DNA of 43,549 nt from a virus. Both the position numbers and the translations under genes were made by a program. Positions 12,935-28,386 of this stretch are shown in pieces. How positions within the stretch are numbered: the stretch's first letter is position 1; each line of letters begins with the position of its first letter. The DNA is taken from positions 1 to 43,549 of IMG/VR virus record IMGVR_UViG_3300028901_000024; one strand, written 5' to 3'. Under the pieces are notes generated by a model. That model did not search any database. It had not been told where the DNA came from and saw only the letters and a program-made list of their open reading frames with translations.

Positions 12935-13067
12935 GTGTTACTCTCTGTTACTCTACTTTCCTCAACCTTTTGCCAGAGAAAAGTTAATAAATATAGGGGA
13001 CAGAACCCCATATATCTCTGGCAAAAGGTTATAGAGAAAAGGGTATCAAAAGGTAACAGAGTAACAC
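12935..13067. repeat. Nested inverted repeat with four TGTTAC(T/C)CT iteron-like units around an AT-rich centre
   Basis: TGTTACTCT occurs at 12936-12944 and 12946-12954, and inverted copies at 13051-13058 and 13058-13066. A perfect 14-bp inverted repeat is CCTTTTGCCAGAGA (12966-12979) / TCTCTGGCAAAAGG (13015-13028). The centre reads aaaagttaataaatatagggg. Confidence 0.75.
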
Positions 13068-13101
13068 GTAAAAAATTACAAGTTAAGGCAGGGAGTCTAA
13101 A

Positions 13102-13413: not shown

Positions 13414-13420
13414 CGGTGTG

Positions 13421-13459
13421 CATACCAGAGGCTAGCAATTGCTAGGATTTCTGGGTATG
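13421..13459. promoter_or_regulatory. Palindrome at the terS start containing copy 6 of the 16-nt element (TAGCAATTGCTAGGAT, 13433-13448)
   Basis: The sequence is CATACCAGA-g-CTAGCAATTGCTAG-gat-TCTGGGTATG. The central 14 bp form a perfect palindrome. The right arm ends in the terS ATG (13457-13459). Confidence 0.5.
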
Positions 13460-13969
13460 GCAAAGACTGGCAGACCTACAACTTTCACAAAAGAAATCGC
13501 CGATGAGATATGTGCACGTTTAGCACAGGCTGAATCGTTGCGTTCAATTTGTCGCGACGAGCACATGCCTAATCGGAGTACGGTAACTGACTGGGTTATC
13601 AAGGATACTCAAGGCTTTGCCAGCCAGTATGCACGCGCGAAAGAAATACAAGCCGACGTCATTTTTGAAGAGCTCTTTGATATTGCAGACGACGGCTCGA
13701 ACGATTGGATGACGCGCGAAACCGAACGCGGGAACATTGTAGAAGTAGCGAATCACGAGCACATATCGCGGTCTAAACTGCGCATTGACACACGCCGGTG
13801 GGCCCTTTCAAAGATGCTCCCGAAGAAGTACGGCGACAAGATCATCAACGAGATCACCAACCCTGACGGCAGCCTTGCGCCAATCACAAAAGAACAACGC
13901 CTTGCTAAGTTGGAAATCCTACGCAAAGAAGCAGCGCGACGCGCCCAAGACGGCAGCGATTTAGTATGA
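13457..13969 (+). CDS. terS: Terminase small subunit
   Basis: The N-terminus MAKTGRPTTFTKEIADEICARLAQAESLRSIC is the HTH typical of this TerS type. The gene lies directly upstream of and overlapping terL (ATGA). An alternative TTG start is at 13439. Confidence 0.8.
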   Translation: MAKTGRPTTFTKEIADEICARLAQAESLRSICRDEHMPNRSTVTDWVIKDTQGFASQYARAKEIQADVIFEELFDIADDGSNDWMTRETERGNIVEVANHEHISRSKLRIDTRRWALSKMLPKKYGDKIINEITNPDGSLAPITKEQRLAKLEILRKEAARRAQDGSDLV

Positions 13970-15618
13970 ACACCGGCGGTTGGACGCCAGAACTCTACGA
14001 TGCGCTCACGCCTGCAGAGCGTGCATTTGTCGACGAAACACTCACGATGTACAATGAAATCTGGGAACCACACCCGGATAATCTGCCCCAGCAGATGGCG
14101 TTTGACTGCGACGCGGATATCCTTGGCTACGGTGGCGCTGCTGGTGGTGGCAAGACAGATTTAGGCATCGGCAAAGCACTCAGGAAACACCGCAAGATTG
14201 CAATCTTCCGTCGTGAAGCAACGCAGCTCATGGGTATTATCGACCGGCTCACCGAGATACTGGGCAGTCGCGACGGCTATAACGGCCAAGAGAAAGTGTG
14301 GCGTGAAGCTGGGCCACGCAAAGTGCAAATTGAATTAGGCTCTGCACCACACGCAGGTGACGAAACGAAGCACCAAGGACGCCCGAAAGACCTGTTGGTT
14401 ATCGAAGAGGCTGCAAATTTCCTAGCGTCGCAAGTGCGCTTTCTCATGGGTTGGGTGCGTACCACCACACCCGGCCAACGTTGCCAAACGTTACTCACAT
14501 TCAACCCACCCACCAACACAGAAGGCCAATGGATTATTGATTTCTTCGCTCCGTGGCTCGACCCGAAACACCCAAAACCTGCAGTACCCGGCGAAGTGCG
14601 CTGGGCAGCAAGTTTGCCAGCGACAGAGCAACACCCCAACGGGCGCGATATATGGCTCGATGACGGGCGACCTTTTGTGCTGGTGGGTGACGAACCTGTA
14701 TTTGATTTCGACCCGGCGCAATTCGCTCGTGAAGACATCATCACACCCAAAACACGTACGTTCATTTCAGCGCGTGTGAGCGACAACCCTTACCTTATGG
14801 GAACTGGCTATATGTCCACACTCCAAGCGTTACCTGAACCATTGCGTTCACAGATGTTAAAAGGCGATTTCCGCGCCGGTATGCAAGACGACCCGTGGCA
14901 GCTCTGCCCGACATCGTGGGTGGAAGAAGCAATGGCGCGTTGGAAAGAGCTATCGCCAAAACCTGAGATGGATTCGCTCGGCATGGACGTTGCACGCGGC
15001 GGGCGCGACAACACGATCTTACTACCACGCCACGGCATGTGGTTCGACAGACCACAAGTGCACCCCGGCAGCGAAACACCAGACGGGCCGAGAGCTGCTG
15101 GGCTCGCTTTGGCTGCTGCGCGTGATGGCGCCGTTGTGCACGTGGACGTTATCGGCGTCGGCGCAGCGGTATATGATCACATGAACGCGATACCGAACTA
15201 TCCAGTCATCGGTGTTGATGTGCGCGTAACCGCGACACGCAAAGATAAATCCGGGTTGCTATCGTTCTTCAACATGCGATCACAACTCGGCTGGCTGTTC
15301 CGTGAATTGCTAGACCCAGCCAATAACACCGGCATTGCGATACCACCCGACGCACGTCTCAAAGCGGATTTATGCAGTATCCGCTGGGGCGTATCGGGCC
15401 GTACGATCAAGGTGGAATCGCGTGATGATATTATCGACCGGCTTGGCCGCAGCCCGGACTGGGCGAGTGCCATATTCCTTGCTGCAATGGACACGCCCAA
15501 ACTGACATTTAACAAGGGTCGCGAGAACACGAAGCAGCAAGAGTACGACCCCTACGCCTTCCTTGGTGTGCATACCCAACCGCGCAAAACTTACAATCCG
15601 TATGACGATTTACGCTAA
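13966..15618 (+). CDS. terL: Terminase large subunit
   Basis: 550 aa. The Walker A is GYGGAAGGGKTD, followed by a nuclease domain. It sits between terS and the portal. Confidence 0.95.
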   Translation: MNTGGWTPELYDALTPAERAFVDETLTMYNEIWEPHPDNLPQQMAFDCDADILGYGGAAGGGKTDLGIGKALRKHRKIAIFRREATQLMGIIDRLTEILGSRDGYNGQEKVWREAGPRKVQIELGSAPHAGDETKHQGRPKDLLVIEEAANFLASQVRFLMGWVRTTTPGQRCQTLLTFNPPTNTEGQWIIDFFAPWLDPKHPKPAVPGEVRWAASLPATEQHPNGRDIWLDDGRPFVLVGDEPVFDFDPAQFAREDIITPKTRTFISARVSDNPYLMGTGYMSTLQALPEPLRSQMLKGDFRAGMQDDPWQLCPTSWVEEAMARWKELSPKPEMDSLGMDVARGGRDNTILLPRHGMWFDRPQVHPGSETPDGPRAAGLALAAARDGAVVHVDVIGVGAAVYDHMNAIPNYPVIGVDVRVTATRKDKSGLLSFFNMRSQLGWLFRELLDPANNTGIAIPPDARLKADLCSIRWGVSGRTIKVESRDDIIDRLGRSPDWASAIFLAAMDTPKLTFNKGRENTKQQEYDPYAFLGVHTQPRKTYNPYDDLR

Positions 15619-15632
15619 GAGGAGCTTTGCAC

Positions 15633-15944
15633 ATGTGCGACCCCATAACCATTGCTGTCGGAGGGGCGATTCTAGGCGCAGCCGGCAGTGCATACACCGG
15701 TATGCAACAAGCCAGAGCCACCCGTAGGGCATCTGCGCAAGCTACTGCAGCAAGCGAAAAACAAGCGAAAGCTGCTGAAGAAGACACGAACCGCCGTAAC
15801 GCGAAACAACCGAACACTGCAGCGTTGCTCGCATCCAACCAGCAAGCCGGCCAGTCAGGCCAATCAGGCACGATGCTCACCGGTCCCGCTGGTATCGACC
15901 CCTCAATGCTCTTGCTGGGTAAAAACACTTTACTCGGAGTTTAG
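15633..15944 (+). CDS. Small Gly/Ala/Gln-rich virion-associated protein starting MCD
   Basis: AGAGGAG lies 8 nt upstream of ATG 15633. The hydrophobic N-terminus is MCDPITIAVGGAILGAAGSAY, followed by a Gln/Ala-rich tail. Confidence 0.65.
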   Translation: MCDPITIAVGGAILGAAGSAYTGMQQARATRRASAQATAASEKQAKAAEEDTNRRNAKQPNTAALLASNQQAGQSGQSGTMLTGPAGIDPSMLLLGKNTLLGV

Positions 15945-15946
15945 AC

Positions 15947-17629
15947 ATGGCACCAGCCGGCTCTGGGTACACCGATCTGCAGTTGCTCAGGCGGCGATAT
16001 TCTGCATTGGATGTCGAGTTCAGCAGCTGGCGTAACCACGGCCGCGATCTCAGCCAGTTTATCTTGCCGCGTTCTGGACGTTTCCTCACGTCTGACCGCA
16101 ATAAAGGCGACCGCCGTCATAACCTGATTTACGACAACACCGGCACGCGTGCACTGCGTGTGCTTGGTGCTGGCCTCATGGGCGGGGCTACATCCCCAGC
16201 TCGCCCGTGGTTCCGGTTGGCGACACCAGACCCAGACCTCATGCGCTCACCCAACGTCAAGTTGTGGTTGAACGATGTCACGCGCAACATGCTGTATATT
16301 TTCCAACGGTCGAACACGTACCGCACGTTGCACATGATGTACGAGGAACTCGGTTGCTTCGGCACTGCAGCCTCGATTGTCATGGACGACTTCAGCGACG
16401 TGATCAAACATTATCCGCTCACCTTCGGTGAGTTCAGGCTTGCGACCGACTACGGCGGTTCTGTCAACACGCTGGCACGTGAGTTTGACAAGCAGGTTGG
16501 TGGCCTAGTCGCTGAGTTTGGCTACAACAACTGCAGTCAGACCGTAAAGAATCTTTATGACCGTGGCGATCTCGATGTGTGGGTGACCATCGTGCACATG
16601 ATCGAACCACGCACCAGCCGCGACCCAAGCAAACGCGACCCGCTCAACATGGCGTGGAAGTCTTGCTATTTCGAGTCAGGAAGCAACGAAGATAAATACC
16701 TGCGTGAATCAGGAATGAAGCAGTTTAGGGCTATCGCTCCGCGCTGGTCGCTGTCCGGTGGTGACATCTACGCGACTTCGTGCCCCGGTATGGAAGCCCT
16801 CGGCGACATCAAACAGTTGCAGCACGAGCAGCTACGCAAGGCAGAAGGCATCGACTACCAGACCAAGCCTCCGTTGCAGGTACCACTGAGCTTGAAGAAC
16901 CGCGACGTAGATCGTCTACCCGGGGGTGTGTCTTATGTCGACATGACCGGTCCGTCCTCCGGCGTGCGCTCCATGTTCGAGGTAAACCTCAACCTGCAAC
17001 ATTTGCTTGAAGATATCCGCGACGTGCGCGAGCGCATCAACGGCGCGTTCTACACAGACCTGTTCCTGATGTTATCTAACATCGACCACACCGGCATCAC
17101 AGCAACAGAAGTCGCAGAGCGTCACGAAGAGAAATTACTCATGCTCGGCCCCGTGCTCGAGCGTCTGCACAACGAAGCCCTCGACCCGCTGATCAGCCTG
17201 ACATTCAACCGTATGGTCGAGACTGGCATCACGCCACCACCACCGCAAGAGCTGCAAGGCCAAGACCTCAATGTCGAGTTCGTCTCCATGCTGGCACAAG
17301 CGCAACGGGCAATCAGCACTAACAGTGTCGATCGTTATGTCGTTCGCCTTGGGGAAGTTGCGACCTTCAAACCGGGCGTGCTCGACAAGTTCAACGAAGA
17401 CGAGTGGGCAGATCGCTACGCAGACATGCTCGGCATCGACCCTGAGCTCGTGAACGCCGGCGAGAAGCTCGCCCTTATCCGTAAGGCCAAGGCCGACGCG
17501 ATGGCTAAACAGCAACAGATGATGGCAACAGAAAGCGCGGCGAACACCGCGAAAGCACTTGCCAGCGCACCCACCGACTCGAAGAACGCGCTCACCGACG
17601 TGACCCGTGCGTTCTCCGGTTACACATGA
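15947..17629 (+). CDS. Portal (T7-type head-tail connector)
   Basis: 560 aa, located after terL. The N-terminal pattern YSALDVEFSSWRNHGRDLSQFILPRSGRF is typical of podovirus connector proteins (recollection). Confidence 0.9.
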   Translation: MAPAGSGYTDLQLLRRRYSALDVEFSSWRNHGRDLSQFILPRSGRFLTSDRNKGDRRHNLIYDNTGTRALRVLGAGLMGGATSPARPWFRLATPDPDLMRSPNVKLWLNDVTRNMLYIFQRSNTYRTLHMMYEELGCFGTAASIVMDDFSDVIKHYPLTFGEFRLATDYGGSVNTLAREFDKQVGGLVAEFGYNNCSQTVKNLYDRGDLDVWVTIVHMIEPRTSRDPSKRDPLNMAWKSCYFESGSNEDKYLRESGMKQFRAIAPRWSLSGGDIYATSCPGMEALGDIKQLQHEQLRKAEGIDYQTKPPLQVPLSLKNRDVDRLPGGVSYVDMTGPSSGVRSMFEVNLNLQHLLEDIRDVRERINGAFYTDLFLMLSNIDHTGITATEVAERHEEKLLMLGPVLERLHNEALDPLISLTFNRMVETGITPPPPQELQGQDLNVEFVSMLAQAQRAISTNSVDRYVVRLGEVATFKPGVLDKFNEDEWADRYADMLGIDPELVNAGEKLALIRKAKADAMAKQQQMMATESAANTAKALASAPTDSKNALTDVTRAFSGYT

Positions 17630-17640
17630 GGAGATGGTAC

Positions 17641-17952
17641 ATGAAACTTGCAAGCCTTAAAACTGACGACTCTGGCATGTGCGAACCGTGTCCACCAAAC
17701 CCGTACGGATACGGCACGTGCATATCGCTCAATGATGACCAGTGCGAAGCCCTTGGTATCACAACGCCAATCCCTGCTGGAACAGTGGTGAGCATACAGG
17801 CCGTAGCCGTTGTCGAGAGTGTCACGGAGAGCGTTGAGCGCGACGGGGATGACACTGGCAACGATGTAAGTATGCGTCTGCAATTAACCGATATGGGTAT
17901 TTCGCCAATGAAGTCGACAATCGACCCGGCTGAAATGCTCTACAGCAAATAG
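17641..17952 (+). CDS. Hypothetical head-module protein (103 aa)
   Basis: GAGGAG lies 7 nt upstream of ATG 17641. An alternative ATG at 17626 overlaps the portal stop. Confidence 0.65.
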   Translation: MKLASLKTDDSGMCEPCPPNPYGYGTCISLNDDQCEALGITTPIPAGTVVSIQAVAVVESVTESVERDGDDTGNDVSMRLQLTDMGISPMKSTIDPAEMLYSK

Positions 17953-17961
17953 GAGATTAAT

Positions 17962-18318
17962 ATGGATAACTACGTTGAAGTTAAAGACCTCGCACCCAAA
18001 GGTGACACAGGGCAGCGCATAAAACAGTGGGAAGGACTCACGCTCACCGAGAGTGTAGGCACGCCAGTCAAGTCGGAAAACTACACTCACCTTTCGATTC
18101 AGGTGGAAGGCGCTTTCGGCGAGAAAGGCCGACTCGTGTTTGAAGGCACCAACGATAATGAGAACTTCCACACGCTTAGTGATCGTCACGGCGCCAAGCT
18201 GGCCTTCAGCAAACCCGGCCTTTACACCGTCGAGCCGTCTTTCGTCGCTGCGCAGCCGCGCGTCGCGGACGGTGACGACGACACCAAACTCACCGTAACA
18301 CTGGTGATGAAACCGTAA
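17962..18318 (+). CDS. Hypothetical protein (118 aa)
   Basis: AGGAGA RBS. Same strand and tight packing as its neighbours. Confidence 0.7.
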   Translation: MDNYVEVKDLAPKGDTGQRIKQWEGLTLTESVGTPVKSENYTHLSIQVEGAFGEKGRLVFEGTNDNENFHTLSDRHGAKLAFSKPGLYTVEPSFVAAQPRVADGDDDTKLTVTLVMKP

Positions 18319-18335
18319 GAACAGGAGCAGACATC

Positions 18336-18821
18336 ATGGCAAATAAACTCAAAGATACCGTAGCTGACGTCAAGACGTTCGGCCGGCTTTTTCAATCCGT
18401 TGTCGACCTCGCGCAAGCGGTAGATGACGTCGGCAGCATCGAACAGCTGGAAGCTGAGGCACGCAAACGCGCAGCACTTGCGAAGAAGGAAGAAGAGAAG
18501 GCGCAGCAAGAGCTGGACGCCACCAAAGCTGAACTTGCTTCTGCAAAAGCAGATGTTGCAAAGGCAAAAGACGAAGCGGCACTTACCCGCGCGAAGGCTG
18601 TTGAAGACGTGGCGAAAAGCAAAGACGAGGCAGCGAAACGAGTCAACGAGCTGATCGACCAAGCCAATGCCTCGGTGAAGAAAGTCAACGATGACATTAA
18701 AGCGAAACAGGCCAGAGCTAAGAGCCTCGACGCAGACATCGAAGAACGTGAGGCCACGCTGAAAGCCCTCAACGACGAGATCGACTCTATCAAGGCAAAG
18801 GCGAGCGCGATTGCTTCGTAA
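18336..18821 (+). CDS. Coiled-coil Ala/Lys/Glu-rich protein (161 aa)
   Basis: AGGAG RBS. A heptad-like charged sequence runs throughout. The long antisense ORFs here are compositional artefacts. Confidence 0.7.
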   Translation: MANKLKDTVADVKTFGRLFQSVVDLAQAVDDVGSIEQLEAEARKRAALAKKEEEKAQQELDATKAELASAKADVAKAKDEAALTRAKAVEDVAKSKDEAAKRVNELIDQANASVKKVNDDIKAKQARAKSLDADIEEREATLKALNDEIDSIKAKASAIAS

Positions 18822-18827
18822 AGAGAC

Positions 18828-19193
18828 ATGGGCAAACAGACACCGGGCGGGCAAGAAGTAGCGCACACTATCGTCTCCGGCCAGTTCACAGGGACCGGCC
18901 GGTCAGGAAATGCTACGCGCGGTACACAATCTGGCAGCGGTTCTGTCCCCCCGGTGTTTAAAGACCTTTTCAACGCCGCTTTGTGGGGCACGTTTGTTGG
19001 CACGGTGAAACTCGAGAAGTCTTTTGACGGCGGTACCACGTGGCTACCTGTCTCTAAAGACATTGCAGGTAACGAGGCAGCGTACACGGCGCCGGTCAAC
19101 TTGGGTATCTACGAACCGGAGCCGAACATACTTTATAGCTGGAATTGTACCAGTTACGTGAGCGGGACGATAAACTACAGGCTATCTCAATGA
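18828..19193 (+). CDS. Hypothetical protein (121 aa), probable beta-rich virion protein
   Basis: ATG start. The stop overlaps the next gene (ATGA). The motif VKLEKSFDGGTTWLPV is present. Confidence 0.7.
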   Translation: MGKQTPGGQEVAHTIVSGQFTGTGRSGNATRGTQSGSGSVPPVFKDLFNAALWGTFVGTVKLEKSFDGGTTWLPVSKDIAGNEAAYTAPVNLGIYEPEPNILYSWNCTSYVSGTINYRLSQ

Positions 19194-20092
19194 GTGTTTT
19201 GTTCACATTGATACGTCAGGCCGCTGAGAAACTGACTACTGCTGACATCTTGGCACTTCTAGGAATTGTGCCCATAGAGCATGGTGGTACAAGCGCAGAT
19301 AACGCAGATGGCGCGGTAGCCAATTTAATTGGGGGGCTAACCTCTGATGGCGCAGTTGACGCGGCAGCGACATCATCAATTTATGCTTATTATGATAACA
19401 ACAAAAGCTCGGCAAAGTATGTATCCGGGGCCGATCTTGCGGATAAGATTATTGCTTCTGGAAATTTTGGTGCGCTCGCATTTCAAGGCTCGGTTGATCT
19501 CACAACTCAAGTCACAGGCGACCTGCCATTTAGCAATATAGCCCAAATCGCTACCGCACAATTCCTAGGGCGCAATACATCCGGCACGGGTGATATTGAA
19601 CAACTAAGCATGACCACGGCTAAAACCATGCTCGGCTACGAGTTCGGAGTTGCGGCATCGGAAACTACTATATCGCAATCAGTAAGCGCATCGTCCACCT
19701 ACACACAGAATATTGCCCTTAATGCAAGCGATTGGACGAACGGATGCATGATTGTGCGGGATACCACATCGGGGAATTATGGTACGGGTGCGCTTATACA
19801 TTTTGGCACGTCAACCAGTGAATCATCAGGGGTTAGCGGGGCTATAACATACATAGGCGCTTCATATAGCGGCACATTCCAATCACGGTTGAATGTTGGC
19901 GATGGCTTCGTCACCGCAGCGTCCTTCTTGGGCGTTGGCAGAGGCACAGTCGGAGAATTCCGCATTGATTCAGTGAGAATCAGCGGAACAAACTTAGAAG
20001 TAATCTGGCGCAACTTGGCCGCAGGAACACGTACCATCACCGCACGGCAGCGGTATTATTTATGGCGCGGTGATAAGGATACCACGCCATGA
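19190..20092 (+). CDS. Fibre-like protein (300 aa) with an S/T/G-rich C-terminal half
   Basis: ATGA-coupled start. It carries the motifs LLGIVPIEHGGTSADNADGAVANL and IAQIATAQFLGRNTSGTGDIEQLSMTTAKTMLG, of the kind seen in phage fibres (recollection). Confidence 0.7.
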   Translation: MSVLFTLIRQAAEKLTTADILALLGIVPIEHGGTSADNADGAVANLIGGLTSDGAVDAAATSSIYAYYDNNKSSAKYVSGADLADKIIASGNFGALAFQGSVDLTTQVTGDLPFSNIAQIATAQFLGRNTSGTGDIEQLSMTTAKTMLGYEFGVAASETTISQSVSASSTYTQNIALNASDWTNGCMIVRDTTSGNYGTGALIHFGTSTSESSGVSGAITYIGASYSGTFQSRLNVGDGFVTAASFLGVGRGTVGEFRIDSVRISGTNLEVIWRNLAAGTRTITARQRYYLWRGDKDTTP

Positions 20093-21243
20093 GGGTACTT
20101 CACATCTGCATCAACGACCCTGATTATCCTACTGGCGGCCTTGGCGTTGCGGTTAAAGGTATCACCGAGGCGCAGAAGAAAATCGGTGTCATTCCTTATG
20201 TGCTTTGTTTTGACGACAACCACCCGGAAGGCCGAAAAGAGGGCAATATCCTCTCCGTCAATATCGAGGGCGATACACCGCGCTTTGCTGACATGGGCTA
20301 CCACCGCTTGATCTGGCAGCGCATGGCGACACATCTATGCCATTACTGGAAGAACGAGCCGATAGACATCATTCACCTGCACGATTCATGGTTGTGGCCT
20401 GTAGCTGAGGTTGCGCAAGCCCTTTATGGTTGCCAGATAATTTACACAAACCATTTGTCATTTGCTGTCGAAAACATTGGCTGGCCTAAGTGGAACAAAG
20501 TATCGAGCGAAGAAGCACACCTTGAAATCAAATGTCTGACGCAAGCCTATAACACCTATGTTTCGCTACCCTATGCCCAGAAGATAATTGCGCAATACCA
20601 GCTTGACGATCTAATGCCAAACCGCCCGGCTGCGGTTATTCATAATGGCGTAAGCCCATTGGATGAAAGCGAGCAAATAAAACTTGAGGGCAAGAATGTG
20701 TATTTTTGCGGTCGGGCTGTTCCAACCAAAGGCATCAAGCTGGTGGTCGAAGCAGCGGAAAGACTGCCCGGTTACAACTTCCATGTGTTTGCTGCGGTAA
20801 GCAATGACCATAAGGGATTCGCTGAAACAGGCCGCTATCTTGAGTCGGCAGACATCTTGCTAGATAACTTCCACTGGCACAACGTACACACCGAAGCCCA
20901 GAAATGCGCGTATCTTCGGGCGTGTGATGTCGCCCTAGTTCCAAGCATCAACGCCGCACCGTTTGAAATCACCGGGCTTGAGGCCATGATTGCCGGAACG
21001 CCTCTAATCACTACGGCCATGTGCGGGATGCGCGACTATTGCAATGACGACAATTGCACGATTATTGAGCCAACCACAGACGCGCTGGTAGAAGCCATAG
21101 CAAACCATGTGCGCGACCAAGATAAAATACGCAAAGCCTACGACACGGCCAAAGCTTTTACTTGGGACGCTGCCGCCAGCAAATACAAACAATTCTATGA
21201 GAGGGTGCATGGGTTTAATTTACCAGCTAGACACGCCGCTTGA
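20089..21243 (+). CDS. GT-B fold glycosyltransferase (GT4-like)
   Basis: N-terminus RVLHICINDPDYPTGGLGV, and C-terminus VALVPSINAAPFEITGLEAMIAGTPLITT (E..E sugar-donor motif region). The start is ATGA-coupled. Confidence 0.85.
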   Translation: MRVLHICINDPDYPTGGLGVAVKGITEAQKKIGVIPYVLCFDDNHPEGRKEGNILSVNIEGDTPRFADMGYHRLIWQRMATHLCHYWKNEPIDIIHLHDSWLWPVAEVAQALYGCQIIYTNHLSFAVENIGWPKWNKVSSEEAHLEIKCLTQAYNTYVSLPYAQKIIAQYQLDDLMPNRPAAVIHNGVSPLDESEQIKLEGKNVYFCGRAVPTKGIKLVVEAAERLPGYNFHVFAAVSNDHKGFAETGRYLESADILLDNFHWHNVHTEAQKCAYLRACDVALVPSINAAPFEITGLEAMIAGTPLITTAMCGMRDYCNDDNCTIIEPTTDALVEAIANHVRDQDKIRKAYDTAKAFTWDAAASKYKQFYERVHGFNLPARHAA

Positions 21244-21568
21244 ATCGCCGGAAGGCGTTACGGTCACACATCTAAACATCTTCCGCAATGATTCGGAAAC
21301 CTACCGCCCGAATCCGCCGGATATGGTTGGTGTGCTGTTCGTTCCAAAGACCGACATTTATTTTGCCGCTTGCAATCCTGATGGCAGCGAAGTCACACAC
21401 CCAGACGCGCAAGGAAGGGATTTGCCAGTGCTTTCAACACTCAGGCGTTTTAAGTTTGGCGACCTCAACCAAGCACAGAAAGACGCGCATAAAGCTTTGC
21501 TTCGCGCTCATTATGAGTTCATGCAGGAAATGGGAGAACTACCGCCGGGGAGCATTATTGATGTTTGA
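21209..21568 (+). CDS. Hypothetical protein (119 aa)
   Basis: ATG after GAGAGGG. It overlaps the glycosyltransferase end by 35 nt and the methyltransferase start by 8 nt. Confidence 0.55.
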   Translation: MGLIYQLDTPLESPEGVTVTHLNIFRNDSETYRPNPPDMVGVLFVPKTDIYFAACNPDGSEVTHPDAQGRDLPVLSTLRRFKFGDLNQAQKDAHKALLRAHYEFMQEMGELPPGSIIDV

Positions 21569-22205
21569 AGTACGCGGTCAGAAGATAGCCCTGCAAAGTG
21601 GCAAGTCATTCGCCCAGATACTTGAGGAGATCAGGCTGGATGTGTACGACTTTGACCGCGTGGATATTAAAGACGGTGATGTCATTGTAGACATCGGCGC
21701 ACATATCGGCATTTTTGCTTGTTATGCCGCCGCTAAATATCCTAACGCCAAAGTATACGCTTTCGAGCCAGCCAAGGAAACCTTTGAAGATTTAAAAAAG
21801 AACGCTGCCGCGTACCCAAATATTACCGCCTTTAACTTTGGGGTATCGGATAAGCCAGAGATTGAAATCCAATATCTGCCCCACATGAATTACTCCACCT
21901 CTGGGTATTACAGTAAAGACGTAAACGGGGCGGTAAAAGAAAAAGTAAAATGCATGTCGTTAGACGAGATCATCGACATGGTGGGAAATATACGCTTCCT
22001 GAAAGTAGATTGCGAAGGTGCGGAATGGGACATTATCCCCAAATGCAAGCAATTAGATCGCGTTGAGTATCTAAGCTGTGAACTCCATACCGGGCTTCCA
22101 AACACCGATATGACGGCCTTTAAGCAGGCAATTAAACCACATTTTACGACAAAGAACTTTCGTGGTCATCGCGTTGAGAAAGAAGCCGCAGAAGGTTTAA
22201 CCTAA
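21561..22205 (+). CDS. FkbM-family SAM-dependent methyltransferase
   Basis: The motifs are VIVDIGAHIGIFACYAA, VYAFEP and FLKVDCEGAEWDI. The upstream part of the track ORF (21288-21560) overlaps the previous gene and is not needed. Confidence 0.85.
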   Translation: MFEVRGQKIALQSGKSFAQILEEIRLDVYDFDRVDIKDGDVIVDIGAHIGIFACYAAAKYPNAKVYAFEPAKETFEDLKKNAAAYPNITAFNFGVSDKPEIEIQYLPHMNYSTSGYYSKDVNGAVKEKVKCMSLDEIIDMVGNIRFLKVDCEGAEWDIIPKCKQLDRVEYLSCELHTGLPNTDMTAFKQAIKPHFTTKNFRGHRVEKEAAEGLT

Positions 22206-22261
22206 AATCAATCCGGGTCTTGGTGTGCGTACCAGACTGGAAGCTCGTTAGAGTTTTCAGC

Positions 22262-22603
22262 ATGAACCACTATGACCCAACGGATACTAGGGCGCAGGAC
22301 AAGACGAAAGCTGAACTCGATGAGGAAGCACGTCGACTCTCCCGTCAAGAGACCGATGATTTCAAGTGGCTCATGAGTGATAAGCGCGGCCGTCGCATAG
22401 TGTGGGGGCTGCTTGAACGAACAGGGATATATCGGTCGAGCTTCACGGGTAACTCCGAGACGTTCTTCCGCGAAGGGGCGCGTAACGTTGGGCTGGTCTA
22501 CCTCGACCTCCTCAACACCTACACCCCTGAAAAATATAACCTCATGGTAACGGAGCAACGTCACAATGACCGACAACGCAACGACAACGACCGACGCAAA
22601 TAA
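22262..22603 (+). CDS. Conserved head-module protein (Bbp19-like by recollection)
   Basis: MNHYDPTD...RRIVWGLLERTGIYRSSFTGNSETFFREGARNVG. It lies directly upstream of the scaffold and capsid genes. Confidence 0.65.
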   Translation: MNHYDPTDTRAQDKTKAELDEEARRLSRQETDDFKWLMSDKRGRRIVWGLLERTGIYRSSFTGNSETFFREGARNVGLVYLDLLNTYTPEKYNLMVTEQRHNDRQRNDNDRRK

Positions 22604-23270
22604 CACTGAAGCCGGTGCGACGTCACAGGAAACCGTTAATGCTGAAGTAAAAACGGAAGCACAAACGGATTCTAGCACCAAGCAGGCTGAAGGCGAAAGC
22701 GACACCGCTAAAGAAAGCGACAAGCAAGACGCCGATAAGACTGACGAGAAGAAAGACACCAAAGAGAAATCTACGGTGCCTGAGAAATACGCGGATTTTG
22801 CTTTAGTCGAAGGGGTTTCTGTAAATCCCGAAACTATGGAGAAGTTCACGGCTCTCGCCAAGAAACACGGTCTCAGCCAAGAAGCAGCGCAAGAGTTTGC
22901 AACATTAGGCAGCGAGGTTGCGAATGGTGTCGCAATGAAGCCAGCCACCTTGTTGCAAGAGCTTACGGACAAATGGGGCAAGGAAGTGGTGAACGACAAA
23001 GAACTCGGCGGCGATAAGCTCGGCGAGAACCTGTCGGTTGCCAAGAAAGCCTTAGATGCGTTCGGCACCGATAAACTGAAATCACTGCTTGGGAAGTTCG
23101 ACGCGAAAGATAACCCGAACGGTACGGGGCTGGGCAACCACCCCGAGATCATCCGGTTTTTCTACAGCCTCGGCAAAGCAATTAGCGAAGACAACAAAGT
23201 CGTTACCCGGGACACCAGCGGCACTGCTGCTAAAGACCCGGCCGAAGTGTTGTACGGCAAAAAGAATTAG
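22566..23270 (+). CDS. Scaffolding protein
   Basis: It has an acidic low-complexity N-terminus, then PEKYADFALVEGVSV...AKKHGLSQEAAQEF. The gene lies immediately before the capsid gene. Confidence 0.8.
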   Translation: MTDNATTTTDANNTEAGATSQETVNAEVKTEAQTDSSTKQAEGESDTAKESDKQDADKTDEKKDTKEKSTVPEKYADFALVEGVSVNPETMEKFTALAKKHGLSQEAAQEFATLGSEVANGVAMKPATLLQELTDKWGKEVVNDKELGGDKLGENLSVAKKALDAFGTDKLKSLLGKFDAKDNPNGTGLGNHPEIIRFFYSLGKAISEDNKVVTRDTSGTAAKDPAEVLYGKKN

Positions 23271-23300
23271 TGAGTTTTAACAAGTTAAGGAGTCCATGAG

Positions 23301-24341
23301 ATGGCAACATTACCTAAAGCTGGCGCAGTCACTCTGCTTGATATCGCCAAGTCCTTAGACCCAGACGGCAAAACGGCGACTGTCGTTGAGCTGCTTAATC
23401 AAACTAACGAAATCTTGACTGACATGAAGTGGATTGAGAGCAATCTCGCCACCGGTCACCAGACCACTATCCGCACCGGTTTACCGACGGCTATCTGGCG
23501 CCAACTTTATCAAGGCGTTCCTCCCAGCAAATCGCAACGTGCTCAGGTAACTGACGCAGTTGGTATGTTGGAAACGCGCTCTGAAGTTGACAAAGATGCT
23601 GTAGAGTTGAACGGCAACACCGAACAGTTCCGTCTCTCCGAAGCGCAAGCTTTCTTGGAAGGCATGAACCAGACGATGGCGTCGACACTCTTCTACGGCG
23701 ACAGCGTGCTCAACCCGGAACGTTTCACCGGTCTTTCTCCCCGTTACTCTTCGCTCTCCGCAGGTAACGCGCAGAACATCATCGACGCCGGTGGTTCTGG
23801 TTCGGACAACACCTCGGTGTGGCTGATCGTCTGGGGTGCAAACACCATCAGCGGCCTGTACCCGAAAGGTTCAAAAGCTGGTCTTATCCACGAAGACCTC
23901 GGTCTGCTTGATGCTTTCGACAGCAGCAACGCACGCTACCGCGCGTACGCTGACCACTGGCAGTGGAAATGCGGCATCACGGTTCGTGACTGGCGCTATG
24001 CTGTGCGTATCTGCAACGTCGACATTTCCGACTTGCTCGCGCAAACCGGCACCCAAGCGTCTACCGCTGCAACGGCATTGATGAAAGTCATGCTGAAAGC
24101 AATGGCTCGTATCCCTGCAATGGGTATGGGTACGCCAGTGTTTTACGCGAACCGCACGGTGAAAGAGATGCTCTCTATCGCTGCGCTCGACAAGTCGAAC
24201 ACGGCACTCGCAATCGAACCTTCAACCAACCAGTTCGGCAACGTTTCGCCGGGTAGCGTTGGTAACGGAACGCTAAGATTCTTTGGCGTACCGGTTCGCA
24301 CCTGCGATGCACTGCTCAGCGCAGAGACCCGCGTAACCTAA
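23301..24341 (+). CDS. Major capsid protein (HK97-type, BPP-1/epsilon15-like)
   Basis: 346 aa with AAGGAG 8 nt upstream. It follows the scaffold and precedes the cement protein, and a hairpin lies downstream. Confidence 0.9.
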   Translation: MATLPKAGAVTLLDIAKSLDPDGKTATVVELLNQTNEILTDMKWIESNLATGHQTTIRTGLPTAIWRQLYQGVPPSKSQRAQVTDAVGMLETRSEVDKDAVELNGNTEQFRLSEAQAFLEGMNQTMASTLFYGDSVLNPERFTGLSPRYSSLSAGNAQNIIDAGGSGSDNTSVWLIVWGANTISGLYPKGSKAGLIHEDLGLLDAFDSSNARYRAYADHWQWKCGITVRDWRYAVRICNVDISDLLAQTGTQASTAATALMKVMLKAMARIPAMGMGTPVFYANRTVKEMLSIAALDKSNTALAIEPSTNQFGNVSPGSVGNGTLRFFGVPVRTCDALLSAETRVT

Positions 24342-24355
24342 TAGCTCCTGAGTGA

Positions 24356-24381
24356 TGTGGCCCGTGTAACAACGGGTCACA
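24356..24381 (+). terminator. Post-capsid hairpin (attenuator/partial terminator candidate)
   Basis: A 10-bp stem TGTGGCCCGT/ACGGGTCACA (one G.U) with a 6-nt loop. No immediate U-tract follows. Confidence 0.4.
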
Positions 24382-24413
24382 GCTTGGCTAATTAATTTTA
24401 AGGGAGATATTCC

Positions 24414-24872
24414 ATGATACTTGATACACAAAATGTTTTTTCTGACGCACAGGCGGTGACCTCGACGGCTATCAGCGCCAACGTCACTGACCTCAACCCT
24501 TCTGGCGGTGCTAACGCCACACAGGACATCGGTAACGGTGAACCGATCTGGTTAGTTATCTCTACCCAGACGACCTGCACCGATACCGGCTCTGACGCGA
24601 CTGTCACTTTCACGCTCGAATCTGACACCGCTGCTGGTCTTGGTTCTTCTCCGGTGGTTCACTTCAGCACTGGTGCACTAGCTTTCGCTACTTATGCGAC
24701 CGCCGGTACCATCGTAGCTGCGGTATTACTGCCGTCGGCAACGTACAAACGCTTCCTCGGTGTGCGTTACACCGTAGCGAGCGGTCCGCTGACTGCTGGT
24801 GCTTTCGATGCGTTCCTCACGCACGACATCCAGAAGTACGTGAACTACGCTAACGGCTTCACTGTAGGCTAA
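24414..24872 (+). CDS. Capsid cement/decoration protein (Bbp16-like by recollection)
   Basis: 152 aa with an AGGGAGA RBS. The N-terminus FSDAQAVTSTAISANVTDL and the position right after the capsid gene support the call. Confidence 0.75.
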   Translation: MILDTQNVFSDAQAVTSTAISANVTDLNPSGGANATQDIGNGEPIWLVISTQTTCTDTGSDATVTFTLESDTAAGLGSSPVVHFSTGALAFATYATAGTIVAAVLLPSATYKRFLGVRYTVASGPLTAGAFDAFLTHDIQKYVNYANGFTVG

Positions 24873-24880
24873 TAAGACAA

Positions 24881-24915
24881 ATGGGTGAGCTCTTTCGGGG
24901 GCTCGCCCATTTTTA
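24881..24915 (+). terminator. Rho-independent terminator
   Basis: A 12-bp stem ATGGGTGAGCTC/GGGCTCGCCCAT (two G.U) with a 6-nt loop, followed by TTTTT. Confidence 0.8.
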
Positions 24916-24936
24916 CTTGGAAAGGATGACATCAAA

Positions 24937-25209
24937 ATGAAAGTTATTGCGACAGCAAAAGGTTACGACAACAAGGCAGTTCGCGAACCCGGCGAAGTAT
25001 TTGACATGCCGGAGGGCGCAAAAGGCAGTTGGTTCAGACCTTACGTTGGAGAAAAAGCAGCTCCTGCAGAAGCGGTAGCCAGCAAGGAACCCACCTACGA
25101 CGAATTGCTCGAGAAAGCAAAAGGCTTAGGCATCCAGTTCAACGGGCGTCCGAAGAAAGCTGACCTGATCGCTGCGTTGGAAGACGCGGAGAAGGAATCG
25201 CTCGCATAA
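24937..25209 (+). CDS. Small protein with a C-terminal HeH/SAP (Rho-N-like) motif
   Basis: GAAAGGA RBS. The C-terminus is YDELLEKAKGLGIQFNGRPKKADLIAALEDA. Confidence 0.7.
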   Translation: MKVIATAKGYDNKAVREPGEVFDMPEGAKGSWFRPYVGEKAAPAEAVASKEPTYDELLEKAKGLGIQFNGRPKKADLIAALEDAEKESLA

Positions 25210-25225
25210 CTTTTAGGTGGTAGCT

Positions 25226-25253
25226 GAGGGAGATTTTCCACTCCCTCTTTTTT
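25226..25253 (+). terminator. Rho-independent terminator
   Basis: A perfect 7-bp stem GAGGGAG/CTCCCTC with an 8-nt loop, followed by TTTTTT. Confidence 0.85.
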
Positions 25254-25266
25254 GGAAAAACGGTAC

Positions 25267-25941
25267 ATGGCAAGTGAAGTCGACATTGCGAATTTAGCTC
25301 TTGCCCACCTCGGCGACGACGCCACGGTGTCCAGTTTCGACCCCCCGGAAGGCAGCGAACAAGCCGAGCATTGCGCCCGGTTCTATCCTATTGCACGTGA
25401 CGCGTTGCTCGAGAAGCACCCGTGGCGTTTTGCTACACGACGCACAACACTTGCAAGCCTGACATCCGGGTCAACGCAGTGGGATTACTCCTACGCGCGA
25501 CCGAACAATGCGCTGGTCGTCTTCGCGGTACTACCCCCGGGAGCGAGTGACGACTACAGCGCCCCCTCTGCAGCTGACTACACCGATTACACCGGTGTGA
25601 ATTTCAGCTACGCGCCTTCGGTCTACCAGACCGAGCCGTTCTCTTCTGAAACGGATGAAGATGGCAACGACCTTATTCTAACAGACGTCGAAGACGCCGA
25701 AGCGCGTTGGATTGCACGCGTCACGGATTCAGATAAATTTTCACCTCTTTTCACGCTTGCGCTTGCACGTCTGCTGGCCCATTTCCTCGCGGGTCCTGTA
25801 CTCAAAGGTGAAATAGGCATGGCGGTGGCGTCCGCTCAGCTAAAGATTTTTGAAAGAGAATTTGCAGAGGCAGCGAAATCTGATGCTGGTCAGGCAAAGA
25901 CCGAGGTGACCCACAGCGTCCCTTGGATTGCTGCGAGGTAG
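25267..25941 (+). CDS. Head-tail adaptor / tubular tail protein A-like
   Basis: MASEVDIANLALAHLGDDATVSSF...ARFYPIARDALLEKHPWRFA is the typical N-terminus of podovirus gp11-like proteins (recollection). The track start at 25252 lies inside the terminator. Confidence 0.7.
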   Translation: MASEVDIANLALAHLGDDATVSSFDPPEGSEQAEHCARFYPIARDALLEKHPWRFATRRTTLASLTSGSTQWDYSYARPNNALVVFAVLPPGASDDYSAPSAADYTDYTGVNFSYAPSVYQTEPFSSETDEDGNDLILTDVEDAEARWIARVTDSDKFSPLFTLALARLLAHFLAGPVLKGEIGMAVASAQLKIFEREFAEAAKSDAGQAKTEVTHSVPWIAAR

Positions 25942-25944
25942 AAC

Positions 25945-28386
25945 ATGCCTAACATTCGCTCGCTCGCTCGCTCATTTGCTGGTGGCGAAGTAACACCAGA
26001 GTTCTACGGTCAGATTGCCGATGCGAAGTTCCAGACAGGGCTCGCGCTTGCACGCAACGGCGTTATATTGCCCCACGGCCCGTGGGCTAATCGCGCTGGC
26101 CTAAGCTTCGTGCGAGAAGTAAAGGACTCGACCAAACGCACGCGCGTTATGCCTTTCTCCTATTCCACCAGCCAAACGTTTTCGCTGGAAATGGGCAATA
26201 CGTATTTCAGGTATCACACCAACGGCGCAACTCTCCTTGCCGGCTCGCCGGCGGCGTGGTCGAACGTCACGGCTTATGTTGTCGGCGATCTGGTATCTTA
26301 CCTTGGCACAAACTACTATTGCATCCTAGGACACACCAACCAAGTCCCACCCAACGCCACGTATTGGTATCCCTTACCAAGCGCGGCGTACGAGATACCG
26401 ACGCCGTTTGTCGAAGCTGATCTTTATGACATCCACTACGTGCAATCTGCTGACGTGCTTACGTTAGTGCATCCGAACTACAGCCCGCGCGAACTCCGGC
26501 GTTTAGGCGCTACGAAATGGACGCTGGTTGCCATATCGTTTGCTTCTGACCTTGCAGCACCGGGAAGTGTCGTGGCAACTCCAAGCGCAGTCGATACGAC
26601 GACCACTTACCGCTACGTGGTCACTGCGGTAGGTGATACCGGCATCGAAGAGTCGCTTGCCTCGAGCTCCGCAAGCTGCACGAACAACCTGCTCACCACC
26701 GGCCGCTACAACGACATCACTTGGGCGTCGGTAACTGGCGCGTCGCGCTACAATGTTTATAAACAGTCTAACGGCCTGTACGGCTATATCGGACAGACCG
26801 ACGCGCTCACGTTCCGCGACGACAACATCACAGCGGATATCAGCAAGACGCCGCCTATCCCTAACAATCCGTTCAGTGGCGCCGGTAACTACCCGGGCGC
26901 AGTCAGTTATTTTGAACAACGCAGGGGCTTTGCCGGCACCACCAACAAACCACAAAACCTGTGGCTGACACGCTCCGGCACTGAGTCGAACCTTGCTTAC
27001 TCCATCCCAACGCGCGACGACGACGCGATCAGCTTCCGTGTTGCTGCGCGTGAGGCAAACACCATCCGGCACATTGTACCGTTGCGTGAGCTTCTGTTGC
27101 TCACATCAAGTGCAGAGTGGCTAGTGACATCGGTAAACTCTGACGCGATTACTCCGACATCGGTTGCGGTGAAGCCCCAGTCGTACGTAGGTGCATCCAA
27201 TGTGCAGCTCGTTATTGTGAATAATAACGCAATTTATGTTGCCGCTCGTGGCGGGCACATACGCGAACTTGGTTATGACGCGCTCCGTTCGGGCGGGTAT
27301 GTGTCAGGCGACTTGTCGCTTCGTGCGCCACACCTCTTTGACGGCTACGACATCCTAGACATGTCTTACGCGAAAAGCCCGTATCCGATTATATGGGCGA
27401 CCAGCAGCAGCGGCGATCTGCTCGGTCTGACTTACGTGCCAGAACAACAGATCGGCGCGTGGCACCACCACGACAGTTACACGCTCGCTGGCAAAAGCTA
27501 CTTCGAGTCGTGCTGCGTTGTGGCAGAAGGTAGCGAAGATGCGCTCTATGTGGTGGTCAAACGCGTCATTAATGGTGCCACCAAACGTTATATTGAACGG
27601 TTGCACACACGCGTCTTTGCAACGTTGCAGGATGCGTATTTTGTTGACTCAGGCGCGACGTACGACGACCCAAAAACAATAAGCGGAGCCACGAAAGCGA
27701 ACCCTGTGGTCGTGACTTGTAACGCCCACGGCTTTAGCAACGGCGATAAGATCGACATTCTGGAAGTCGCTGGCATGACGCAGCTCAACGGGCTTCGGTA
27801 CAGAATTGCTAACGTGACGGCCAATACCTTCGAGTTACAGTCGGATGATGACACACCAGTAAACATCGACGGCACCAGCTTCTCGACGTACACGAGCGGA
27901 GGCAAAGCACGCAAGGCCGTTACCACCATTTCGTCGGGTATCAGCCATCTAGAAGGCGAGACGGTGAGTATCCTTGCAAACGGCGCAGTTTACCCGCAGC
28001 AGACAGTAACGGGCGGTGCTATCACGCTCGACCCTGCAGCCAGTGTCGTGCATGTAGGTCTTCCTATAACGGCCGATATGCAGACTCTGCCGCTTGCTTT
28101 CGAGGCCGAAGCGTTCGGGCAAGGCAGGGTAAAGAACGTGAATCAAGTGTGGTTACGCGTCTATCGGTCCAGCGGCATTTTTGCAGGTCCATCTTTCGAT
28201 AAACTGAAAGAAGCGAAACAGCGCACCACCGAACCGTACGGCACACCACCGTCGCTTAAGAGCGAAGAAATACCAATCGTGCTCACGCCGAACTGGGGAG
28301 ATACCGGTGCCGTGTGCGTACGGCAGTCAGACCCACTACCGCTCACCATCACGTCTATGACAGTAGAGGTTGCAATTGGCGCTTAA
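25945..28386 (+). CDS. Tail nozzle / tubular tail protein B-like, with CBM5/12-like and SH3-like insertions
   Basis: 813 aa, located after the adaptor. The insertions are AWSNVTAYVVGDLVSYLGTNYYCILGHTNQVPPNATYWYPL (26254-26376) and KANPVVVTCNAHGFSNGDKIDILEVAGMTQLNGLRYRI (27694-27840). Confidence 0.8.
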   Translation: MPNIRSLARSFAGGEVTPEFYGQIADAKFQTGLALARNGVILPHGPWANRAGLSFVREVKDSTKRTRVMPFSYSTSQTFSLEMGNTYFRYHTNGATLLAGSPAAWSNVTAYVVGDLVSYLGTNYYCILGHTNQVPPNATYWYPLPSAAYEIPTPFVEADLYDIHYVQSADVLTLVHPNYSPRELRRLGATKWTLVAISFASDLAAPGSVVATPSAVDTTTTYRYVVTAVGDTGIEESLASSSASCTNNLLTTGRYNDITWASVTGASRYNVYKQSNGLYGYIGQTDALTFRDDNITADISKTPPIPNNPFSGAGNYPGAVSYFEQRRGFAGTTNKPQNLWLTRSGTESNLAYSIPTRDDDAISFRVAAREANTIRHIVPLRELLLLTSSAEWLVTSVNSDAITPTSVAVKPQSYVGASNVQLVIVNNNAIYVAARGGHIRELGYDALRSGGYVSGDLSLRAPHLFDGYDILDMSYAKSPYPIIWATSSSGDLLGLTYVPEQQIGAWHHHDSYTLAGKSYFESCCVVAEGSEDALYVVVKRVINGATKRYIERLHTRVFATLQDAYFVDSGATYDDPKTISGATKANPVVVTCNAHGFSNGDKIDILEVAGMTQLNGLRYRIANVTANTFELQSDDDTPVNIDGTSFSTYTSGGKARKAVTTISSGISHLEGETVSILANGAVYPQQTVTGGAITLDPAASVVHVGLPITADMQTLPLAFEAEAFGQGRVKNVNQVWLRVYRSSGIFAGPSFDKLKEAKQRTTEPYGTPPSLKSEEIPIVLTPNWGDTGAVCVRQSDPLPLTITSMTVEVAIGA

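Follow-up and report, generated by a model that had tools for sequence, protein, structure and literature searches.

To our knowledge, phage-encoded glycosylation of the virion has so far been demonstrated only in mycobacteriophages. In Che8, Corndog and Myrna, according to Freeman et al. (2023, Cell Host Microbe) as related in two other papers, glycosyltransferases (GTs) whose genes adjoin an O-methyltransferase gene modify capsid and tail-tube proteins (PMC11600133; PMC12619734). A comparable pairing of enzymes is found in a 43.5-kb metagenomic contig, IMG/VR record IMGVR_UViG_3300028901_000024 (hereafter the window, meaning this whole stretch of 43,549 nucleotides), which was also recovered in Logan SRR10823761 and from JGI and represents a temperate podophage, a relative of Bordetella phage BPP-1 (Rauchvirus). 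Within its late operon, at positions 19190-22205, lie four genes encoding in order a fibre-like protein, a GT4 glycosyltransferase, a small protein referred to as X and an FkbM-type methyltransferase (MT), which on comparative genomic evidence appear to make up a self-contained, horizontally mobile "glyco-fibre" cassette.

As in the mycobacteriophages, phage GT and O-methyltransferase genes are adjacent, here as GT4 and FkbM within one translationally coupled block, and the cassette enzymes are likewise proposed to modify structural proteins of the virion while these are still unassembled in the cytoplasm, as those papers report for the mycobacteriophage enzymes (PMC11600133; PMC12619734). According to the same papers, the mycobacteriophage systems use tandem GTs directed at the C-termini of the major capsid and tail-tube proteins (PMC11600133; PMC12619734), whereas the cassette contains a single GT4 tied to a knob-bearing fibre and to X. 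The carriers differ as well, being actinophages in the one case and metagenomic phages and alphaproteobacterial metagenome-assembled genomes (MAGs) in the other. There is no detectable sequence relationship to the mycobacteriophage enzymes, since tblastn with the GT (at E ≤ 1e-10) against 50,697 GenBank phage records gave no match; searches of the same records with the knob and X, and a nucleotide search of GenBank phages with the inserted DNA, were also empty, and the cassette therefore appears to have no cultured carrier. Relative to the mycobacteriophage precedent, the cassette differs in the lack of any detectable GenBank phage match, the single-GT4, X and FkbM layout, the co-mobile, acceptor-like knob, and the occurrence on diverse phage backbones and bacterial chromosomes.

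In BPP-1 the gene order is portal-bbp20-bbp19-bbp18-bbp17, with bbp20 and bbp19 directly adjacent and no gene between them. In the window, whose terminase and portal genes share about 67% DNA identity with those of BPP-1 and of Limnohabitans phage DC33, the late operon begins TerS-TerL-portal and continues, beyond the inserted genes, with Bbp19-like, scaffold/protease (phrog_458), major capsid (GP7), Bbp16-like cement, tail and internal virion protein genes. An earlier reading made from the sequence alone (the sequence-only reading) had placed about 4.6 kb of extra genes between the portal and the Bbp19-like gene. The insertion stands, but its size does not: because the open reading frame (ORF) directly 3′ of the portal gene is a backbone bbp20 homologue, the insertion relative to BPP-1 spans 17953-22261, about 4.3 kb and seven genes. 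The bbp20 homologue marks its left edge and the Bbp19-like gene its right edge, both lying outside the cassette (Table 1).

The four core ORFs and their junctions are where that reading had put them: the fibre gene overlaps the gene before it by 4 nt (ATGA), the GT gene overlaps the fibre gene by 4 nt (ATGA), and overlaps of 35 and 8 nt follow at the starts of X and MT, start codons that are backed by N-terminal conservation among homologues. The core genes are also AT-richer than their flanks, as had been judged by eye, with GC contents of 0.45-0.50 (lowest, 0.45, in the MT gene) and third-position GC contents (GC3) of 0.46-0.55, compared with 0.52-0.57 and 0.58-0.70, respectively, in the flanks, and with an overall GC of 0.49 as against 0.54 for the rest of the window. 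The shift is modest, yet it is confined to these four genes, the three inserted genes upstream of them (118, 161 and 121 aa) having backbone-like GC; the synteny with BPP-1 and the distinct core GC together uphold the earlier view of an acquired insertion in the late head operon. That view included the absence of a promoter or terminator around the block, and in a scan of positions 13000-26000 neither promoter-like sites (9, against 8.7 expected from shuffled sequence) nor terminator-like sites (13, against 14.7) rose above background. The clearest terminator-like hairpin of the head region, judged by stem and T-run, lies downstream at 25226, 3′ of a 90-aa ORF downstream of the Bbp16-like gene, and so the portal-to-cement genes, including the cassette, would form one transcription unit. 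The cassette genes thus appear to be late and co-translated, with no promoter signal of their own.

The same arrangement is common to the nearest relatives of the GT and is referred to here as the type I cassette: a fibre with a variable N-terminus and a C-terminal domain termed the FIBC knob, then GT4, X and FkbM, in overlapping or abutting genes. It occurs at differing places in the structural modules of at least seven unrelated phage backbones (BPP-1-like, another podovirus, P22-like, HK97-like siphovirus and others; Table 1). A minimal type II form resides between the portal and head protease genes of lambda-like phages (L035/L044); there a 165-aa, FIBC-only protein overlaps the start of the GT gene, the GTs are more distant (29-33% identity), and neither X nor MT is detectable in these loci by hidden Markov model (HMM). 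Cassette GC remains within 0.476-0.494 (window, L005, L017, L027, L029 and L031), while the phage backbones span 0.44-0.54. Moreover, the cassette is itself mosaic, the window MT being closest to that of podophage contig L005 (87% amino acid identity) and the window X to that of the P22-like phage L027 (83%), and these differing nearest relatives imply recombination inside the module. The differing backbones, steady GC and internal mosaicism point to a mobile module rather than a lineage feature, one that appears to have been acquired as a unit. In the HK97-like siphovirus the cassette is extended (L032, 9546-14647): 3′ of the first MT gene come five unknown genes (191-279 aa), a second FkbM gene and a gene for a 272-aa protein, which may allow a more elaborate glycan.

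The most consistent feature of these loci is the position of the knob. Among loci of this GT clade with upstream sequence, phage and bacterial alike, a FIBC ORF lies immediately 5′ of the GT gene in 25 of 25 (23 from an HMM scan and two from further look-ups), usually overlapping it, which agrees with the earlier proposal that the enzymes are tied to the adjacent fibre. Because the knob alone always accompanies the GT clade, and every other component (capsid, portal, tail, fibre N-terminus, X, MT) changes or is lost from one carrier to another, knob and GT are best understood as a substrate-enzyme pair or an obligate partner pair.

The fibre-like protein is built of three parts. Residues 1 to about 95 form a lineage-specific N-terminus; residues ~95-148 contain a widespread repeated motif, VTGDLPFSNIAQI..LGR..G.GDIE.L; and residues ~150-300 form the FIBC knob, a domain of about 150 aa ending in RYYLWRGDKDTTP. 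An exhaustive search returned 252 matches at E ≤ 1e-3, mostly to the repeated motif, which matches many viral contigs and occurs in large fibre-like proteins, often in several copies each. The knob is rare, with about 10 clusters at 50% identity among 1.84 billion representatives, and nothing in Pfam, PHROG, NCBIfam or the PDB sequences matches it. Across loci the N-terminus may be absent altogether or as long as about 300 residues; that of L032 resembles collagen, and the fibre homologue there matches tail-fibre PHROGs and collagen. The C-terminal half, described earlier as rich in Ser, Thr and Gly, is indeed 39% Ser+Thr+Gly and 26% Ser+Thr, most other late proteins having 10-18% Ser+Thr. An AlphaFold2 (AF2) model made from a five-sequence alignment has an overall predicted local distance difference test score (pLDDT) of 45, with beta strands at residues 154-206 and 257-292 (pLDDT about 55-84), and Foldseek searches with this low-confidence model gave weak jelly-roll-type matches (Ena fibres, the Kp9 tail fibre, T4 gp9 and viral jelly rolls; E about 0.02-0.05), a hint that the knob may be a novel, jelly-roll-like beta-sandwich.

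Phage tail and side fibres are recognizable by a repeat motif and a structural-module context, and the predicted 300-aa protein has both. A further parallel is offered by phage T5, whose L-shaped tail fibre is accompanied by a collar/assembly protein (phrog_3304; PF23926, LtfC-like). In the bacterial copies described below, and in the siphovirus L032, the fibre is preceded by a member of a beta-sandwich family, here called p132-like, that belongs to phrog_1084 and also matches phrog_3304, which suggests a docking-protein-plus-fibre pair. In contrast, T5 has no associated GT or MT, and the 118- and 121-aa proteins of the window have no detectable similarity to the LtfC-like family. Taken with the fibre motifs and the collagen-like N-terminus seen in L032, the p132-like protein would place the knob on a virion appendage.

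The GT-B assignment made in the sequence-only reading is well founded. The 384-aa protein scores above the Pfam cut-offs for PF00534 (65.1 bits; cut-off 26.4), PF13692 (53.3; 27) and PF13439 (46.7; 28.5), and the family profile matches MshA (PDB 3c4q) over residues 14-389 with E = 3e-18, as well as GlgM, GlgA, PimA and WaaG. Across the GT clade, whose members are 29-90% identical, the segments GGLGV, DxIHxHD, GRxVxxKG and the second Glu (LEAM) of the motif PFEIT(G/A)LEAM are invariant. In the type II GTs this motif is a canonical E-x7-E; in type I enzymes, including that of the window, it is only partly so, because the first Glu is displaced (N-x-A-P-F-E-I-T-G-L-E). The invariance of the nucleotide-sugar-binding and catalytic motifs over such divergence argues that enzymatic activity has been retained.

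Protein X is specific to the cassette. Its homologues comprise only 8 clusters among 5.8 billion sequences, and its AF2 model, predicted with good confidence (pLDDT 89.5) as a beta sheet with a C-terminal helix, finds no meaningful fold neighbour in the PDB by Foldseek (best E-value 0.34), so that X probably represents a cassette-specific family with a new fold. No type I cassette lacks it, and its gene always overlaps that of the GT, by 13-38 nt; this conservation suggests that GT and X are co-translated partner subunits, and X is proposed to be a partner or adaptor of the GT.

A possible analogy for X is GtfA/GtfB, in which a GT4 protein O-GlcNAc (O-linked N-acetylglucosamine) transferase works with a non-catalytic partner to O-glycosylate serine-rich-repeat (SRR) adhesins. 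Both systems would combine a soluble, cytoplasmic GT4, a Ser/Thr-rich surface fibre and a co-encoded partner. However, X has only 119 aa and an unrelated predicted fold, the candidate acceptor in the cassette is a compact beta domain rather than a long series of SRR repeats, and GtfA and GtfB are not among the PDB sequence matches of the GT family profile.

The last gene of the cassette was also correctly read as an FkbM-type methyltransferase: the product scores 99.1 bits against TIGR01444 (cut-off 37.7) and 53.2 bits against PF05050 (cut-off 22.7), matches phrog_8156 with E = 1e-21, and contains, as read from the sequence, a glycine-rich S-adenosylmethionine (SAM)-binding motif, VIVDIGAHIGIF, at residues 41-52. 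Typical targets of O-methylation by FkbM enzymes are sugars or polyketide hydroxyls. A SAM methyltransferase accompanies the GT in all type I cassettes.

Copies of the cassette also reside in three alphaproteobacterial MAGs (JANRJW01, JAJTHB01 and CANHDY01), of which two carry the label Rickettsiales and the third Alphaproteobacteria. All occupy the same syntenic position in the chromosome, flanked on one side by an ABC-F ATPase gene and on the other by queF/ugd/galU. The arrangement there is a p132-like protein of 118 aa (phrog_1084, 7e-30; phrog_3304 "L-shaped tail fiber protein assembly", 3e-10; PDB "structural protein", 3e-8), a fibre of 266-307 aa, GT, X and MT. This stable locus implies that the module is not strictly a feature of podovirus virions. 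In the comparison of the bacterial loci L007 and L010, flanking housekeeping proteins are mostly 81-93% identical and cassette proteins 53-74%. L010 and L012 are much closer to each other: their flanking proteins mostly share 94-100% identity, and GT, X and MT share 94%, 94% and 90%, but the fibres only 55-56%. In the DNA alignment the divergence forms a single block of about 1.05 kb with sharp edges (L010:8885-9935 vs L012, alignment columns ~285-1335), which begins halfway through the p132-like gene, takes in its 3′ half and almost all of the fibre gene, and ends about 70 nt short of the fibre stop codon. Such a pattern indicates that an exposed protein has probably been replaced allelically, or is under diversifying selection, next to enzymes that do not change, and it implies that the bacterial locus is functional in cells.

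Directly 3′ of the bacterial cassette lies queF, followed on the opposite strand by ugd (UDP-glucose 6-dehydrogenase) and a galU-like NTP transferase gene (L007:12176-14876 and L010:12180-14880); this adjacency may be coincidence or may hint at UDP-glucose or UDP-glucuronic acid as sugar donor.

The enzymes look active and cytoplasmic, given the invariant catalytic motifs and the lack of a hydrophobic segment; all seven inserted proteins lack membrane-spanning segments (Kyte-Doolittle 19-residue mean maximum ≤ 1.49). In the model that we favour, and that we hold to be evenly poised between right and wrong, the fibre gene product would be a virion fibre or appendage, fitted to a particular virion by its variable N-terminus and carrying in its conserved C-terminal knob the functional partner of the enzymes. 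Late in infection the soluble GT4, with a nucleotide sugar as donor, would glycosylate the knob in the cytoplasm; X, co-translated by way of the long conserved overlap, would probably assist as a substrate-presenting subunit; and the FkbM enzyme would then O-methylate the knob-borne sugar. The modified fibre would finally be built into the particle, in this phage probably with the help of the 118-aa, 161-aa coiled-coil and 121-aa accessory proteins. Methylated surface sugars of this kind have a precedent among giant eukaryotic viruses: A064R of chlorovirus PBCV-1, with two rhamnosyltransferase domains and a methyltransferase domain, acts in capsid glycosylation, and Mimivirus glycosylates its fibrils. 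There, too, a virus-encoded cytoplasmic GT and a sugar methyltransferase place methylated sugars on a surface protein or fibril without host machinery, but the enzyme families are others, the gene sets are large, and no portable acceptor-plus-enzyme cassette is involved.

Several observations weigh against this model. We infer glycosylation of the virion solely from gene linkage, and the knob as acceptor, the role of X, the sugar as methyl acceptor and incorporation into the virion are deductions of the same kind. Across the knob alignment there is no invariant Ser or Thr that could be a candidate acceptor site, and the Ser/Thr-containing C-terminal tail is absent from type II proteins and from some type I proteins; the fold of the knob is uncertain as well, given how poorly the fibre was modelled. 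Among characterised GT4 enzymes, the nearest relatives (MshA, PimA, WaaG, GlgA/GlgM) act on small molecules, lipids or glucans rather than on proteins. Finally, no other phage genes lie within 10 kb of the bacterial cassettes, which shows that the cassette is able to persist, and perhaps to work, without a full set of virion genes around it.

The lack of a conserved Ser or Thr would be accommodated if the acceptor were some other virion protein (capsid, Bbp16-like cement, tail or coiled coil) and the knob were a targeting or adaptor subunit of the GT or a glycan-binding, lectin-like fibre. This is the alternative that survives best, although we consider it unlikely. It fits the siting of the cassette, mostly within head-gene blocks and directly after the portal, and the fact that the reported mycobacteriophage targets are capsid and tail tube (PMC11600133; PMC12619734). 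Yet the capsid, portal and tail proteins are wholly different among the T7/BPP-1-like, P22-like, HK97-like and lambda-like carriers, so constant in their knob-GT linkage, and the knob is the sole structural component that travels with the GT; nor is there a capsid gene within 10 kb of the three bacterial loci. The capsid, which the sequence-only reading had offered as a possible glycan target, received no specific support.

There is also a slim chance that the enzymes modify a host surface glycan, for receptor masking, superinfection exclusion or lysogenic conversion, with GT4 and FkbM altering a lipopolysaccharide (LPS) or capsule intermediate recognised by the knob. In gtrABC/oac modules, sugar-modifying genes of temperate phages of Gram-negative bacteria as well, the products are membrane proteins expressed in the lysogen from genes beside the attachment site (att), the integrase or the tailspike; those of the cassette, in contrast, would be soluble, late and coupled to morphogenesis genes. 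The phage is temperate, as its integrase attests, and a receptor-binding protein travelling with receptor-modifying enzymes would also account for the linkage of knob and enzymes. FkbM relatives include the O-antigen modifier RfbT of Vibrio cholerae (the window MT scores 24.9 bits against PF05575, below cut-off), WaaG and PimA are among the nearest GT4 relatives, and the bacterial copies adjoin ugd and galU. Nevertheless, the cassette contains no flippase, GtrA/B/C, Wzx/Wzy or membrane segment, it is translationally coupled to late morphogenesis genes with a promoter scan at background, and it is always found in structural modules and never beside att or integrase, which in the window is 18 kb away. 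Late expression would, furthermore, leave little time for remodelling an existing cell surface. The lysogenic-conversion alternative, against which the sequence-only reading had argued, is weakened by these features.

Fibre genes are classically followed at once by the gene for their assembly chaperone, and the overlapping stop and start codons 3′ of the fibre gene resemble such layouts. Conceivably, then, the GT4 and/or X, the latter being small, cassette-specific and devoid of a matching solved fold, could owe their recruitment chiefly to a part in folding or trimerising the knob, with sugar transfer absent or incidental. We regard this as improbable, as the GT motifs are invariant at 29-90% identity and a SAM methyltransferase is never missing from type I cassettes. 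Least probable is a function outside the virion, such as DNA hypermodification or a conflict/anti-defence glycosyltransferase, with a merely coincidental fibre link, which a sub-threshold match to PF20706, "GT4 in conflict systems" (25.6 bits; cut-off 26; higher in distant clade members), might recommend, but for which the unbroken knob linkage is hard to put down to chance and the siting in structural rather than replication modules is unexpected. DNA glycosylation as such was rejected, Pfam annotation of the window, early genes included, having revealed no hydroxymethylase or base-modifying genes.

If knob glycosylation by the cassette enzymes is correct, virion glycosylation would extend to phages of other bacteria, with backbones resembling those of podo- and siphophages that infect Gram-negative hosts; it would move between unrelated phages as a compact plug-in module and come with a dedicated acceptor domain. 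The four genes would constitute a heterologously testable system for engineering glycan-decorated phage particles, and for probing the role of virion glycans in adsorption, in shielding from immunity or defences, and in stability. Irrespective of this, the FIBC knob and X are two protein families without a Pfam, PHROG or PDB counterpart, and the alphaproteobacterial copies represent an unexpected long-term retention of a phage fibre module by cells. A broader and distinctly more tentative proposal is that the cassette is a portable "substrate plus enzymes" unit that could fit any virion by swapping its N-terminal adaptor, that its methylated glycan offers a surface for adhesion or for shielding against recognition by host or predator, and that it has been domesticated at one fixed chromosomal site in an alphaproteobacterial lineage, with allelic replacement of the fibre beside constant enzymes. 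Such a domesticated cassette suggests that bacteria may use a glycosylated phage fibre, for example on a tailocin-like or gene-transfer-agent (GTA)-like particle encoded elsewhere. That the bacterial fibre actually serves a GTA or tailocin particle is speculation; PDB sequence searches of the bacterial loci gave no match to any GTA component.

Table 1. Positions of features in the window, and placement of the cassette in other phage contigs
Feature	Position	Strand	Basis or context
Integrase	79-1158		temperate lifestyle marker
bbp20 homologue (Gp10-like), backbone	17626-17952	+	PF21628, E = 7.7e-11; phrog_825; 40% identity to BPP-1 bbp20 (tblastn)
118-aa accessory protein	17962-18318	+	no Pfam, PHROG or NCBIfam match
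161-aa predicted coiled-coil protein	18336-18821	+	weak coiled-coil Pfam matches only
121-aa accessory protein	18828-19193	+	stop overlaps fibre start (ATGA); no Pfam, PHROG or NCBIfam match
Fibre-like protein, 300 aa	19190-20092	+	lineage-specific N-terminus, repeated fibre motif, C-terminal knob
GT4 (GT-B, retaining type) glycosyltransferase, 384 aa	20089-21243	+	Pfam matches, PDB profile matches, conserved motifs
Protein X, 119 aa	21209-21568	+	cassette-specific family; 35-nt overlap with GT gene
FkbM-family SAM-dependent methyltransferase, 214 aa, last cassette gene	21561-22205	+	TIGR01444, PF05050, phrog_8156
Bbp19-like backbone gene	22262-22603	+	PF25181, E = 1.7e-13; phrog_528; 52% identity to BPP-1 bbp19
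Clearest terminator-like hairpin of head region	25226-25247	+	7-bp stem with 5 GC pairs, then TTTTTT
L005, different podophage			cassette upstream of TerL
L017, IMG/VR contig			cassette after 1638-aa and 669-aa tail/injection genes; with homologues of window 118-, 161- and 121-aa genes
L027, P22-like phage			cassette between portal and scaffold/coat
L029, contig with SU10-type adaptor			cassette after portal
L031, unassigned phage contig			cassette upstream of lysozyme genes
L032, HK97-like siphovirus			cassette after head-tail connector gene, ahead of head-closure and tail genes
L053, unassigned			knob-only protein of 177 aa

Upstream of the fibre gene, the three accessory genes extend the cassette to a seven-gene module, which has a counterpart in the viral contig L017, where the module stands after tail genes. 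There the 118-aa protein has a homologue (32% identity) at the same relative position, an ORF also of 161 aa in the equivalent position is 25% identical to the coiled-coil protein (E = 2e-4), and a homologue of the 121-aa protein (72% identity) lies directly 5′ of the fibre gene; a more distant homologue of the last (31% identity) is found in L005, 164 nt upstream of the fibre start. In L031 and L029, too, the fibre gene comes after one for a helical or coiled-coil protein (174-175 aa), and the 161-aa coiled-coil protein of the window is possibly a shaft or anchor. A weak phmmer match of the 121-aa protein to Fap1 (E = 0.009) was treated as compositional, and kinship of the 118- and 121-aa proteins with the p132-like protein of the bacterial loci and L032 was rejected, the hhalign probabilities being below 1%.

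Elsewhere in the window, Pfam annotation of the early region identifies the integrase, PolA, an SNF2 helicase, a primase, a single-stranded DNA-binding protein and a PD-(D/E)XK nuclease. The late region contains an 813-aa tail protein (25945-28386, +) with a CBM_5_12 carbohydrate-binding module and an E1_FCCH-like domain; an E1_FCCH match is also present in the corresponding gene of L005. Between this gene and that of a T7 gp14-like internal virion protein is a GNAT acetyltransferase gene (28370-28831, +); BPP-1 has a GNAT gene (bbp24) elsewhere, between TerL and portal; the window GNAT is possibly another virion- or host-modifying enzyme. Further downstream, a single ORF of 2504 aa (31606-39120, +) presumably encodes an internal virion or injection protein, and 3′ of it lies the gene for a Ser/Thr-rich protein of 600 aa with no Pfam match (39180-40982). 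This protein is likely the regular tail fibre, in which case the fibre of the cassette would be supernumerary.

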